Of a stretch of 64,000 nucleotides of DNA, positions 60,638 through 64,000 are shown in pieces. The stretch comes from Lachnospiraceae bacterium (GTDB taxonomy: Bacteria > Bacillota > Clostridia > Lachnospirales > Lachnospiraceae). The stretch is from NCBI GenBank assembly GCA_031272185.1, contig JAISUG010000058.1, forward strand, positions 8,203 to 72,202, given 5' to 3'. How positions within the stretch are numbered: position 1 is the first letter of the stretch; the number at the start of each line of letters is the position of its first letter. The notes below the pieces were generated by a model. That model had not been told where the DNA came from and searched no databases. It was given only the letters and a program-made list of their open reading frames with translations. The translations under genes and the position numbers were made by a program.

Positions 60638-60790
60638 GGGGAATCCTTTCTGTGCCAATGCTGAATAAGGTGTTTACCTTAGGTAGCGGGGAACAAGCCA
60701 AGCGTGGTTTTGTTTTGCCCGTTTACCTTAGTATGCATGAAAACCGCCGAAATTTCAATAGGCAATCTGTACAGTGGCAAAATTTCCATA

Positions 60791-60820
60791 TTGACAGTGG
60801 TGTGGGGGATGTGGTAGATT
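60791..60820 (+). promoter_or_regulatory. candidate promoter upstream of the riboswitch-like element
   Basis: TTGACA (60791-60796), 18 nt spacer, TAGATT with an extended -10 TGG. Confidence 0.5.
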
Positions 60821-60834
60821 ATAGACAGTGAAGC

Positions 60835-60918
60835 GGGCTTGTATATGCCCATGATCGTGTCTTTTGACCGTCGGATGGGCGTTTCTACCAACTGCCGTAA
60901 CAGTTGACTACAAGGGCC
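60835..60918 (+). ncRNA. purine (guanine/xanthine-type) riboswitch-like aptamer with enlarged P2/L2
   Basis: P1 is CTTGTA / TACAAG and P2 is GCCCAT / ATGGGC. J2/3 is GTTTCTAC. P3 is CAACTG-CCGTAA-CAGTTG. J3/1 is ACT. The J2/3, L3 and J3/1 strings match the conserved core of the B. subtilis xpt guanine aptamer (..GUUUCUACC...CCGUAA...GACUA..). Confidence 0.6.
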
Positions 60919-61014
60919 ACCAAAGAGCGGGATGCCAAAGCGGGTGAAGGTGTCTGCGGCGATTTGCGGTGGGAGGTCGATTGCGGGCGGTTTTTTTATT
61001 TAACAGGAGACGAT

Positions 61015-63906
61015 ATGGGGATCGGGACGTCGCAGGTGCGGGTGGACGCATACGAAAAGGTAACGGGCGGGGCGAAATACACGGCGGACATGGAGCCCAA
61101 AGGCACGCTGGTGGCGAAACTGGTGCGCAGCACCGTCGCCAATGGCCGGGTGCTGGGGTTTGATTTGAAAGAGGCTTGGGCTGTGGAGGGTGTGGAGGAC
61201 ATCGTCACCTGCTTCGACGTGCCGGAACACCCCTACCCCACACCCGGGCACCCCTGGTCGGTGGAACCCTCCCACCAAGACGTGGCGGACCGGCGGATGC
61301 TCAATGAACGTGTGCGCATATACGGGGACGACATTGCGGTGGTGGTGGCCCGTGACGAGGTGGCCGCCAAGAGGGCCGCGGGGAAGATACGGGTGGAGTA
61401 CGAGGAGTACAGGCCGCTCCTGACGGTGGCACAGGCGCTGGGCAGGGACATCTCGCCATGGTGGGCGAAAGAGGCGGCACAGTCTTTGCCGCCGGGGTCG
61501 CTAGGTACCCCTGCCGGTGAAGAGTCAGGCGCGGCCCGAAATACATTCGTCCGTGAACGGGCACCGGCCCCTGACTGTATTGGGGACGACAGGACAGGGT
61601 GGGGCGAAGGCGATGCCACGGCGATCCACGAGGAGTGTGCGGACAACTGCCTGAAGCACACCGGGTTTCGCCTGGGGGAGGGCGCATTCCACGACTTCGA
61701 GGGCATGGACGGCGTGGCGGTGGTGCAGAAAGTGTACAGGACCCAGACCGTGCAGCATTGCCACATCGAGGTCCCGGTGTCTTTCGCATACATGGAACAT
61801 GACAGGGTGACGGTGGTGAGCTCCACCCAGATCCCCCACATCGTGCGGCGGGTGATCTCCCAGGCCTTGGGGCTGGACATGGGGCGCATCCGGGTGATAA
61901 AGCCCTACATCGGCGGCGGGTTCGGCAACAAGCAGGAAGTGCTCTACGAACCGCTCAATGCGTTCCTGGCCATGCGCCTGGGCCGCCCGGTGAAAATCGA
62001 GCTAAGCAGGGAGGAGACCCTGGCCTGCACCAGGGTGCGGCACGCCATGGAGTTCCAGCTGGGCGCCGCGGCCACGCCTGACGGGCGGCTTCTGGGGCGC
62101 AAATTCGTGGCCTACTCCAACCAAGGGGGCTACGCCTCCCACGGCCATGCGTTGATTGCCAATGCCGCGGGGGAGTTCAAACAGATCTACCGGGACGAAA
62201 AGGTGCTGGAATCCGACAGCTACACGGTATACACGAACATTTCCACAGGCGGGGCCATGCGGGGATATGGGATCCCCCAGGGCGTCTTCGCAGGGGAGGC
62301 GTTGATGGACGACCTCGCGCGAAAGATCAGCATGGACCCCCTGGAGTTTCGCCTGCGCAACTGCGTCCGGGAGGGGTACGAAGACCCCCACACACATGTG
62401 ATGTTCCGCAGCTACGGCCTGCGCCGCTGCATCGAGGTGGGGCGGGAGCGGTTCGGGTGGGACGAGAAGAGGGCGAGGTACACCCGGGAAAACGCGGATC
62501 TTGCGGATGGGGCGGGGACAGACAAAGGCACCGATGCCGCGGGTGCGGGGGTATCGACAGGCGCTGTGAAGACAGACGTTGCGGCGATGACAGGCGTATG
62601 CGCTGATACGGCAGGTGCGGGGGCCGGACAAAAGCGCCGGGGCGTGGGCATGTCCATATTCATATACAAGACGGGCGTCTACCCCACCTCGCTGGAAACG
62701 GCATCTTGCCGCATGGTGCTCAACCAAGACGGTTCGGTGCAGCTCCAGATGGGCGCCACGGAGATCGGCCAGGGGGCAGACACGGTGTTCACCCAGATGG
62801 CGGCCCAGGTGCTGGGGATACCCGAAAGCAAGGTACACATCATCTCTTTCCAGGACACGGACGTGACGCCTTTTGACACGGGTGCATACGCATCCCGCCA
62901 GTCCTACGTCAGCGGGAAAGCGCTCAAGCAGACGGGGGAACTCCTGAAAGAAAAGATCCTGGGGTATGCGGCCGGGATGCTCCGGGGCGAATCGCAGGGC
63001 GGACCGCAGGGCAAATCGCAGGGCGGATCGCAGGGCAAATCGCAGGGCAAATCGCAGGGCGAATCGCAGGGCGGACCGCAGGACGGACCGCAGGGCGGAC
63101 CGCAGGACGGATCGCAGGTCGAATCGCTGGGCGAATCGCAAGCCGAGGCCGAGGGGGCGGCAGCGGGGGGCGTAGCTGTCCCGTATGACGTTCTGGGTAC
63201 AGATGGTGCAGGCCCCGGGGCGGCGCATGCTGCCAGCATAGCTGCGCATGGACGGCACCCGGCGGTGTCCGGCCTGGATATCGCAGGTGATTTCATCGTC
63301 GAGAAAGCGACGGGGCGACGGCTATTGAGCGTGGGCGACGTGGCCATGACGGCATTATACAGTCTGGATGAATCGGTGCACATCACCGCGGAGTCCACGG
63401 TGCATTGCAAGGACAACACGTTTTCCTCCGGGGCGTGCTTCGCGGAGGTGGAGGTGGACATCCCCCTGGGCAAGGTGAAAGTGCTGAACTTGCTCAATGT
63501 ACACGACTCCGGCACCCTCTTAAACCCGCAGCTGGCCAGGGCGCAGGTGCACGGGGGCATGAGCATGGGGCTGGGGTTCGGGATGTATGAGGAGCTGCTC
63601 TACGACGAAAAGGGCCGCCCCCTCAACGACAACCTGCTGGACTACAAGCTGCCCACTGCCATGGACACGCCAGACCTGCAGGTGGAGTTCGTGGAGGTGG
63701 AGGACCCCACGGGGCCTTTCGGCAACAAGGCGCTGGGCGAGCCGCCGGCCATCCCGGTGGCCCCGGCCATACGCAATGCGATCCTCCACGCCACGGGGGT
63801 GGCGTTTGACAGCCTGCCCATGACGCCCCAGAAACTGGTGGAAGGGTTCTGGAAAGCGGGGCTGACGAAGCGGCCCCAACCACATGTACAGGGAATGGCC
63901 GGGTGA
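61015..63906 (+). CDS. xanthine dehydrogenase-family molybdopterin-binding subunit
   Basis: N-terminal a/b-hammerhead (VDAYEKVTGGAKYTAD), Moco motifs (YIGGGFGNKQE, GATEIGQGADT) and C-terminal GEPPAIPVAPAIRNA. ATG at 61015 follows AGGAGA. Two low-complexity insertions, including a 12-nt in-frame repeat at 62987-63150. Confidence 0.88.
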   Translation: MGIGTSQVRVDAYEKVTGGAKYTADMEPKGTLVAKLVRSTVANGRVLGFDLKEAWAVEGVEDIVTCFDVPEHPYPTPGHPWSVEPSHQDVADRRMLNERVRIYGDDIAVVVARDEVAAKRAAGKIRVEYEEYRPLLTVAQALGRDISPWWAKEAAQSLPPGSLGTPAGEESGAARNTFVRERAPAPDCIGDDRTGWGEGDATAIHEECADNCLKHTGFRLGEGAFHDFEGMDGVAVVQKVYRTQTVQHCHIEVPVSFAYMEHDRVTVVSSTQIPHIVRRVISQALGLDMGRIRVIKPYIGGGFGNKQEVLYEPLNAFLAMRLGRPVKIELSREETLACTRVRHAMEFQLGAAATPDGRLLGRKFVAYSNQGGYASHGHALIANAAGEFKQIYRDEKVLESDSYTVYTNISTGGAMRGYGIPQGVFAGEALMDDLARKISMDPLEFRLRNCVREGYEDPHTHVMFRSYGLRRCIEVGRERFGWDEKRARYTRENADLADGAGTDKGTDAAGAGVSTGAVKTDVAAMTGVCADTAGAGAGQKRRGVGMSIFIYKTGVYPTSLETASCRMVLNQDGSVQLQMGATEIGQGADTVFTQMAAQVLGIPESKVHIISFQDTDVTPFDTGAYASRQSYVSGKALKQTGELLKEKILGYAAGMLRGESQGGPQGKSQGGSQGKSQGKSQGESQGGPQDGPQGGPQDGSQVESLGESQAEAEGAAAGGVAVPYDVLGTDGAGPGAAHAASIAAHGRHPAVSGLDIAGDFIVEKATGRRLLSVGDVAMTALYSLDESVHITAESTVHCKDNTFSSGACFAEVEVDIPLGKVKVLNLLNVHDSGTLLNPQLARAQVHGGMSMGLGFGMYEELLYDEKGRPLNDNLLDYKLPTAMDTPDLQVEFVEVEDPTGPFGNKALGEPPAIPVAPAIRNAILHATGVAFDSLPMTPQKLVEGFWKAGLTKRPQPHVQGMAG

Positions 63907-64000
63907 TGGCATCGGCATCCACGACTCGGCGGCCTTCCGGCAGGTTCGGCTGAGCGAAGAAAACCTGCGGGGCAGGAAGCCGGCAGGGCTGGAAGCCGGC

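Follow-up and report, generated by a model that had tools for sequence, protein, structure and literature searches.

The pbuE (ydhL) adenine riboswitch of Bacillus subtilis is a classic transcriptional ON switch, in which P3, J3/1, and the 3' strand of P1 of the aptamer form the 5' arm of the terminator; ligand binding prevents termination ahead of an efflux pump gene, and position 74 is U. The xpt-pbuX riboswitch of B. subtilis (guanine-I) is an OFF switch with a three-way junction and an L2 loop of 6-7 nt. In the xpt aptamer, L2 and L3 are joined through two base quadruples, U34/G37/C61/A65 and A33/G38/C60/A66, on which G32 stacks (PMC1802621), and this loop-loop contact is essential to ligand binding (PMC2018637). 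Variants of the same scaffold have been described (Hamal Dhakal et al. 2022, 2023). The xanthine-II riboswitch is defined by U51G with insertions in J2-3 and J3-1, and the guanine-II riboswitch has a single-nucleotide insertion in J2-3 with xanthine-II-like changes in J3-1 (PMC9295807). The 8-oxoguanine riboswitch has no U at the equivalent of position 47 and is associated with an 8-oxoguanine deaminase gene (PMC10556655).

In this study, a 64-kb stretch of DNA from a Lachnospiraceae bacterium (the whole stretch is hereafter called the window) was analyzed. The leader of xdhA carries, at 60838-60914 of the window, a purine riboswitch of the guanine-I class. Its three-way junction, J1/2, J2/3, and J3/1 are identical to those of xpt-pbuX, and it has the residues that make the loop-loop contact in xpt, namely, the GG of L2 and the CC of L3 as well as A33, U34, A65, and A66. 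In contrast to xpt, its L2 has 22 nt, because 16 extra nucleotides predicted to form a hairpin stand between U34 and G37, and its control is predicted to be ON. P2 of 6 bp and L3 of 6 nt also differ from xpt and are the same as in the Lachnospiraceae subgroup to which the aptamer belongs (in xpt numbering, A35 and A64 are missing). The predicted platform follows the same logic as that of pbuE; however, position 74 is C, the regulated gene is catabolic, and the spacer, which has a predicted hairpin of its own, far exceeds that of pbuE in length (61 nt). The xanthine-II, guanine-II, and 8-oxoguanine variants have the scaffold in common with the window aptamer, but they are changed in the binding core, whereas the window aptamer is changed in the peripheral L2 only. 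Thus, a known class gains a member with a peripheral oddity, detectable by any Rfam-based annotation.

Identification of the aptamer

When the whole window was compared with all Rfam families, the purine family (RF00167) matched at 60819-60930 on the + strand with 40.9 bits (gathering score, 37) and an E-value of 0.0029, and it was the sole family reaching its gathering score in the 64 kb. The 22-nt L2 was placed as an insertion in this alignment. With R1, a covariance model built from 18 canonical members of the subgroup (the closest relatives), the window aptamer scored 73.2 bits (E = 3.5e-15) over the full length, within the range of the members themselves. RNAfold predicted for 60835-60918 the three-way junction and a mini-hairpin in L2 (-28.3 kcal/mol; the z-score of -2.05 is weak taken alone). 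All 18 pairs of P1, P2, and P3 are Watson-Crick pairs, and the canonical guanine-I nucleotides of the pocket and the junction (U22, U47, U51, and C74) are all in place. The G+C content of the aptamer was 48%, as compared with 60% for the window, which fits constraint on the element. The features are summarized in Table 1.

An initial annotation, made from the letters alone, had described a three-way junction of the guanine/adenine class with an expanded L2 in front of a xanthine-dehydrogenase-family gene. The strings it quoted for P1, P2, J2/3, P3, and L3 were all found in the sequence; the likeness of J2/3 and J3/1 to the xpt core turned out to be identity; and the C at the specificity position, the 22-nt L2 with the terminal GG kept, and the extra mini-hairpin (as a prediction by RNAfold) were likewise recovered. 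The covariance-model match, together with the covariation described below, bore out the assignment, against which the annotation had set the lack of either.

Table 1. Positions of the aptamer, its expression platform, and the neighboring features in the window
Feature	Sequence or residues	Position	Strand	Basis and remarks
Sigma-70-like promoter	-35 TTGACA (60791-60796), 18-nt spacer, TG-extended -10 TAGATT (60815-60820)	60791-60820	+	Consensus scan; prediction
P1, 5' strand	CUUGUA	60838-60843	+	Rfam and subgroup model alignments; pairs with 60909-60914
J1/2	UAU (xpt U22, A23, U24)	60844-60846	+	Rfam alignment
P2, 5' strand	GCCCAU	60847-60852	+	Six Watson-Crick pairs with 60875-60880
L2 (22 nt)	G32 A33 U34 (60853-60855), extra segment (60856-60872), G37 G38 (60873-60874)	60853-60874	+	Sequence; residue roles from PMC1802621
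16-nt insertion in L2		60856-60871	+	Comparison with L2 of relatives (GAUCGG); removal gives 56/61 identity to L097
L2 insert hairpin	5 bp, one bulge, loop UUUU	60856-60870	+	RNAfold predictions
P2, 3' strand	AUGGGC	60875-60880	+	Rfam alignment, folding
J2/3	GUUUCUAC (G46 U47 U48 U49 C50 U51 A52 C53)	60881-60888	+	Same as Rfam consensus
P3	CAACUG/CAGUUG	60889-60894/60901-60906	+	Rfam alignment, folding; same in L097, L110, and L113
L3 (6 nt)	CCGUAA (C60 C61 G62 U63 A65 A66)	60895-60900	+	Rfam alignment, folding; same in L097, L110, and L113
J3/1	AC (C60908, specificity nucleotide C74)	60907-60908	+	Rfam alignment
P1, 3' strand	UACAAG	60909-60914	+	Rfam alignment, folding
Spacer, apical hairpin of terminator		60917-60973	+	Prediction
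Terminator 3' arm	GGUCGAUUGCGGGCGGUU	60975-60992	+	Minimum-energy fold of 60830-61000, RNAduplex
U7 tract of intrinsic terminator	U7	60991-60997	+	Sequence
RBS	AGGAG	61005-61009	+	Sequence; ends 5 nt ahead of ATG
xdhA	Xanthine dehydrogenase molybdenum-binding subunit, 963 aa	61015-63906	+	Pfam and NCBIfam; start codon ATG at 61015

Downstream gene and promoter

The product of the downstream gene contained the Pfam domains Ald_Xan_dh_C, MoCoBD_1, and MoCoBD_2 and matched the NCBIfam equivalog of XdhA (NF043082) with 1115 bits (cutoff, 780), in agreement with the initial annotation. One database entry, belonging to a Lachnospiraceae MAG, was 100% identical to it. The next XdhA had 62% identity, and the homologues that followed, of 762 aa, had about 60%; as compared with them, the window XdhA had three low-complexity inserts. 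In the homologues, the operon consists of the purine riboswitch and the genes for an amidohydrolase, a xanthine/uracil permease, XdhA, the FAD subunit, and the 2Fe-2S subunit, and the canonical aptamers of these homologous xdh operons scored 51-60 bits with RF00167. The amidohydrolase was just below the guanine deaminase cutoff in one of the related loci (L001) and belonged to the 8-oxoguanine-deaminase equivalog in another (L097). In L001 and L002, canonical-size aptamers stand ahead of guanine-deaminase/xdh operons, and in L028, such an aptamer stands directly ahead of xdhA. A literature search found no report of guanine-I aptamers before xdhA in Lachnospiraceae; since its coverage was incomplete, this is weak evidence of absence.

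The putative promoter had 10 of 12 hexamer matches in the consensus scan, with TG ahead of the -10 element. Transcription would start at about 60827-60832, so that 6-11 nt or so would precede P1 in the transcript.

Related aptamers and covariation

A pattern scan for long P2 regions in species-representative genomes gave at least 119 loci with purine aptamers, and 123 aptamers were parsed for the distance between J1/2 and J2/3. This distance was 18-22 nt in 114 of the 123, and genuine L2 expansions were found only in the window and, among the matches listed, in L014 and L029. Note that L116 was masked with N and was left out of the judgement on L2. Most of the matches listed were canonical aptamers preceded by a fortuitous TATA, to which the other long distances were due. 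In the JGI metagenomes, a stricter scan anchored on CUURUAUAW gave two matches, both canonical, and no expansion. No close relative of the window leader was found in the collections searched, this metagenome pattern scan included.

The nearest aptamers among the matches listed were L097, L110, L113, L067, and L101 (Lachnospiraceae, Dorea, and Sporofaciens), in which P1, P3, L3, and J3/1 are the same as in the window and L2 has 6 nt (GAUUGG or GAUCGG). When 60856-60871 were removed, the identity of the window aptamer to L097 and L110 was 55-56/61. The five differences from L097 are at the variable positions 24 and 48 and at three positions in P2, where pairing is kept or improved (U-A to C-G, which is compensatory, and U.G to C-G); U at position 24 is within the published consensus (PMC2018637). 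L097, L110, L113, and L067 are grouped with L001, L002, and L028 in a Lachnospiraceae/Clostridia subgroup of ON type sharing P1, P3, L3, and J3/1 with the window, and the pathway is also shared (a guanine-deaminase-like gene, a permease, and xdhABC, or xdhA directly in L028). In this subgroup, L2 has 6 nt, and position 48 is G in the closest relatives. The window differs from it in having U48, the 22-nt L2, an aptamer directly ahead of xdhA, and an enlarged spacer rich in G+C.

For the covariation analysis, 50 distinct related aptamers were aligned to R1. In this alignment, the fitting of which to the covariance model itself favours the structure, 94.8% of the cells were paired, as compared with 24-38% in slid controls, and compensatory changes were seen in 16 of the 18 pairs. 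The covariance-model alignment (A3) was used because MAFFT (A1) placed the 5' halves of the expanded aptamers (the window, L014, and L029) wrongly. The J2/3 columns were invariant across the subgroup, and all of the 22 subgroup-invariant columns (alignment A2) were unchanged in the window. The terminator and the insert of the window had no covariation support of their own.

Enlarged L2 loop

L2 of the window reads GAU-CGUGUCUUUUGACCGU-CGG. The predicted pairs of the insert hairpin are C56-G70, G57-C69, G59-C68, U60-A67, and C61-G66, with U58 bulged (last two digits of the window positions). Although L2 has 22 nt instead of the usual 7 or so, G32, A33, U34, G37, G38, C60, C61, A65, and A66 are all kept, since the insert is located between U34 and G37 and replaces only the apical A35/U36 segment, outside the quadruples. 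The insert hairpin could plausibly project from the tip of P2/P3 without breaking the docking of the loops. A literature search found no report of L2 insertions in this class; its coverage was incomplete, so that this, too, is weak evidence of absence.

The two other expanded aptamers, L014 (a Lachnospiraceae MAG) and L029 (a Clostridiaceae MAG), belong to the same subgroup as the window and resemble it in having an enlarged L2 with the terminal GG and ON-type terminators. However, the insert sequences are unrelated and lie in other places in L2, namely, in L014 within an A-rich L2 of 25 nt (RF00167, 52.2 bits) and in L029 at the 5' edge of L2, where the insert has 24 nt and can form a hairpin (56.3 bits), and both aptamers precede a gene for an FAD-dependent oxidoreductase, whereas the window aptamer precedes xdhA. 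Five independent assemblies had the L029 insert with the same sequence, and it was absent where the downstream protein was 98% or 95% identical, i.e., it was specific to one species. Thus, this insert is real, fixed, and recent, and it does not point to a conserved class of variants. The window insert was a singleton in the collections searched, and its hairpin found no comparative support there. L2 insertions were rare and sporadic, and the two checked against relatives were confined to single lineages.

The loop-loop contact could be weakened by 16 additional nucleotides in L2. If the docking were in fact broken, the element would be a decayed one, and the leader would no longer respond to a ligand, acting as a constitutive attenuator or being read through. 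The singleton state of the window insert, the recent origin of the L029-type insert and its absence from a relative with a 98% identical downstream protein (as expected if the event was neutral or slightly deleterious), and a terminator arm more degenerate in the window than in the relatives are consistent with decay. On the other hand, the 22 invariant columns are intact, every difference from L097 preserves the structure despite surroundings of 60% G+C, the insert spares all of the quadruple residues, and the L029-type insert has become fixed. Decay thus appears unlikely, and the 16-nt insert is most likely lineage-specific and tolerated rather than functional.

Functions for the insert were also considered. 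If the insert hairpin were a working fourth helix ('P2a') that tunes the switch, and the recurrence of L2 insertions in the window, L014, and L029 reflected selection, this would be, to our knowledge, the first case in nature of a branched P2 in a guanine-class aptamer; docking could become slower or weaker, shifting the response range, and the insert together with the 5' strand of P2 could mask the RBS, adding a translational layer. We regard this as quite improbable. A mechanism in which the insert (GACCGUC) pairs with the terminator arm was dropped, since complementarity as good was found in 27% of shuffles and was thus not significant.

Two other roles were suggested by sequence matches. 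The segment 60845-60868, i.e., the 5' half of the insert with the 5' strand of P2, is complementary to the RBS/start region (61000-61022) with -19.4 kcal/mol, as compared with -14.4 +/- 2.8 kcal/mol for the null, in which 6% of random 150-nt stretches equaled this value, and could act as an anti-RBS. The insert could instead supply the third copy of an operator-like DNA motif, TWGACMGTS-N4-GGG, of which the copies at 60791, 60822, and 60864 (spacing, 31 and 42 nt) are the only matches in the 64 kb; a like family was seen in 2 of 200 shuffles. However, the two signals are marginal and were noticed only post hoc, and the complementarity to the terminator arm mentioned above adds nothing significant. 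The three copies themselves served to define the motif pattern, and part of the third copy (GGAUGGG) is ancestral L2/P2 rather than insert. As for the anti-RBS, P2 is paired in both predicted states and would thus rarely be free to mask the RBS. Either role is very improbable.

Ligand

With its canonical pocket (U22, U47, U51, and C74), the aptamer would bind guanine, hypoxanthine, or xanthine. The adenine class was rejected because position 74 (60908) is C, not U. The initial annotation had called a change of ligand specificity plausible in front of a purine-oxidizing enzyme. Such a variant would sense xanthine, urate, 8-oxoguanine, or another oxidized purine instead of guanine and hypoxanthine. 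The purine-oxidation context of the gene fits such a variant, and the xanthine-II and 8-oxoguanine variants of this fold are also linked to purine-degradation genes (PMC9295807 and PMC10556655). However, the core is that of guanine-I and has none of the changes defining the variant classes: for xanthine-II, U51 is present and J2/3 (8 nt) and J3/1 (2 nt) have no insertions; for guanine-II, the junction lengths are canonical; and for 8-oxoguanine, U47 is present (60882) and the downstream gene is xdhA. The altered part, L2, is far from the binding pocket, as is established from the xpt structure (PMC1802621). Furthermore, canonical-size aptamers already precede xdhA and xdh operons in the relatives, so that the gene context needs no new ligand, and guanine-I aptamers discriminate guanine from hypoxanthine or xanthine only about 10-fold (PMC9295807), so that a canonical pocket already senses substrates of the xdh pathway. 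A change of specificity was thus unsupported and is extremely improbable.

Terminator and direction of regulation

The initial annotation had reported no convincing terminator stem; however, a terminator is present, with its 5' arm inside the aptamer and its 3' arm downstream of the spacer. The run of seven T residues that it noted ahead of the RBS exists, although at 60991-60997 and not at 60993-60999. The minimum-energy fold of 60830-61000 without constraint (-56.6 kcal/mol) consisted of helix A (60986-60992 with 60890-60896), helix B (60975-60983 with 60901-60909), and the apical hairpin, and it retained P2 and the insert hairpin. The fold with the aptamer enforced was nearly isoenergetic (-55.4 kcal/mol); when the 3' arm was kept free as well, the apical hairpin was again formed. 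With RNAduplex, the pairing of the arm with the aptamer was -20.5 kcal/mol; the local alternative of the arm (-16.3 kcal/mol) was not much weaker. A consensus terminator scan did not detect the terminator of the window because the stem encloses a long structured loop. By eye, 60957-60973 in the spacer repeats part of the terminator 3' arm in direct orientation.

In the relatives with catabolic genes, a U tract follows an arm complementary to L3, the 3' strand of P3, J3/1, and the 3' strand of P1. The arms of L097 and L110 are UAGUUGAUUGUUACGGCAG followed by a U-run (U5 in L097), and the window segment GGUCGAUUGCGGGCGG followed by U7 (60975-60997) resembles them, as judged by eye and not by a computed alignment. 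The window arm is more degenerate than those of the relatives, with a 4 x 2 internal loop, G-U pairs, and the 61-nt spacer. In the RNAduplex classification, the window arm was ON-like. Sorted by first gene, the leaders of amidohydrolase (11 ON-like, 0 OFF-like), FAD oxidoreductase (7 and 0), and XdhA (2 and 0) genes were ON-like, and the leaders of GuaB (0 ON-like, 7 OFF-like) and PurE (0 and 5) genes were OFF-like. From these predictions and comparisons, it is likely that the element is an ON switch for xdhA.

The proposed mechanism is as follows. Without ligand, the 3' arm would invade P3, L3, and J3/1 by pairing with 60890-60909, the invaded helix would stack on the apical hairpin, and the resulting long hairpin, ending at the U7 tract, would halt transcription. 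With ligand, the locked aptamer would withhold the 5' arm, and RNA polymerase would read through into xdhA. Such ON control would amount to substrate induction of purine oxidation, and the ON design fits substrate induction of XdhA. Energy alone cannot decide between ON and OFF, since the fold of the whole leader was no better than that of shuffles (z = -0.16). Furthermore, in the state with a folded aptamer, a local G-U-rich hairpin at 60951-60989 (-21.5 kcal/mol) can adjoin the U tract, and by thermodynamics alone a hairpin precedes the U run in both states. The ON reading therefore needs the apical hairpin to form first during transcription, sequestering 60951-60965.

The same local hairpin is the basis of the opposite reading, in which the ligand-bound aptamer would leave it free beside U7 to terminate transcription, and the P3 and J2/3 region would pair, without ligand, with 60951-60978 as an antiterminator. 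This hairpin is present in the aptamer-enforced fold, the minimum-energy fold of a longer transcript pairs 60878-60902 with 60951-60978, and most of the described guanine-I riboswitches are OFF switches (PMC9295807). However, in that antiterminated fold the 3' arm pairs with 60866-60876, which leaves a hairpin in front of the U tract, so that termination would not be relieved. The ON architecture of all of the relatives with catabolic genes and the resemblance (by eye) of the window 3' arm to the arms of their ON switches also argue against OFF control, and repression of xanthine dehydrogenase by its own substrates would make little physiological sense. OFF control is distinctly unlikely. Taken together, the account combining a guanine-I aptamer, an ON-switch terminator, a tolerated L2 insert, and control of xdhA is moderately likely as a whole.

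Implications for purine degradation in Lachnospiraceae

The window riboswitch reveals no new ligand or new mechanism. It is a natural experiment in which L2 accepts a 16-nt hairpin with every quadruple residue kept, and if binding is retained, the insert site could guide scaffold engineering. As for the family, the locus extends what is known of purine degradation in Lachnospiraceae by a xanthine dehydrogenase under riboswitch control, and the comparison suggests that a subgroup of guanine-class aptamers in gut Clostridia acts as ON switches for catabolic genes, which comprise a guanine-deaminase-like gene, xdhABC, and the gene for an uncharacterized FAD oxidoreductase.

Repeats and duplications around the window riboswitch and xdhA

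Three direct copies of the pattern TWGACMGTS-N4-GGG lie in the promoter and aptamer region of the window riboswitch, with spacings of 31 and 42 nt (approximately 3 and 4 helical turns) and without any fourth match in the 64 kb. The pattern was drawn from these same three copies and noticed after the fact, and of 200 dinucleotide shuffles, 2 yielded a family as good as this trio. The first copy overlaps the -35 box and the second the region of the transcription start; the third overlaps the L2 insert in its 3' half as well as the 3' strand of P2. The copies could be operator sites, or a vestige of the origin of the L2 insert. Separately, the intergenic region that separates the divergent patatin-like gene from the riboswitch promoter contains a perfect 11-nt direct repeat whose starts are 49 nt apart. 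The 3' arm of the window terminator is partly duplicated in direct orientation. In one of the comparison loci (L101), two complete terminator arms stand in tandem, and a separate U tract follows each of them.

The window XdhA consists of 963 aa, compared with 762 aa in relatives, because of three low-complexity inserts (e.g., GESQGGPQGKSQGGSQGKSQGKSQGESQGGPQ), and its cluster in a collection of 5.8 billion proteins has one member sequence, from one contig. The region immediately 3' of the xdhA stop up to the window end (63906-64000) contains no more than a GC-rich palindrome (GCCGGC...GCCGGC) and an ORF of 15 codons; no start of xdhB or xdhC is visible there, whereas both genes are present in the homologous operons.

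Nearest aptamer relatives and their downstream genes

Among the matches listed, the aptamers most closely related to that of the window combine G48 (xpt numbering) with C74, their J2/3 being GUGUCUAC; the window aptamer has U at position 48. The combination of G48 and C74 is reported to be strictly avoided in phylogeny and to impair ligand binding because G48 mimics the ligand (PMC2018637; PMC2847212). In the relatives' loci, it is recurrent in ON-type leaders of the 8-oxoG-deaminase-like and FAD-oxidoreductase genes.

Of the 123 purine aptamers parsed among the matches listed, 15 have the latter gene, encoding an FAD-dependent oxidoreductase of about 460 aa, as their first downstream gene. 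Its precomputed Pfam matches include PF21688 (FAD-depend_C), and no NCBIfam match was found. Hungatella, Lacrimispora and Lachnoclostridium have homologues of the L029 enzyme with >90% identity. The leaders before this gene differ: some have CCUCAA as L3 in place of CCGNAA, and in the variant leader of L127 no terminator was seen, the RBS lying about 20 nt past P1. At the two Hungatella loci checked (L129 and L130), the 260 nt that precede the gene contain no match to the aptamer J2/3 pattern. At L014, the expanded-L2 purine aptamer has a SAM riboswitch as a neighbour at a distance of about 100 nt; the SAM riboswitch is on the other strand and directed away from the aptamer. By the RNAduplex classification, 7 of the 15 leaders were ON-like and none OFF-like (8 without a call). 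We regard the FAD-dependent oxidoreductase as a candidate purine-responsive enzyme.

Features of the window and of the comparison loci (L-numbers: loci with purine aptamers or homologous genes)
Feature	Position	Detail
TWGACMGTS-N4-GGG copies 1 to 3	window 60789-60806; 60820-60837; 60862-60879	
Direct repeat	window 60672-60682; 60721-60731	GTTTACCTTAG
Terminator arm duplication	window 60957-60973; 60974-60990	GGCGAUUUGCGGUGGG; GGUCGAUUGCGGGCGG
xdhA	window 61015-63906	
G48 + C74 aptamers	L097:3331-3391; L110:6903-6963; L113:1861-1921; L067:1171-1231; L101:7544-7604	parsed J2/3
Further G48 + C74 aptamers	L024; L104	parsed J2/3
FAD-dependent oxidoreductase genes	L113:1983-3353; L067:1292-2662; L014:6012-7403 (-); L029:3615-4997	11 other loci in addition
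Variant FAD-oxidoreductase leaders	L127:913-973; L139:458-518	Lacrimispora-like
SAM riboswitch	L014:7710-7817	RF00162, 85.3 bits
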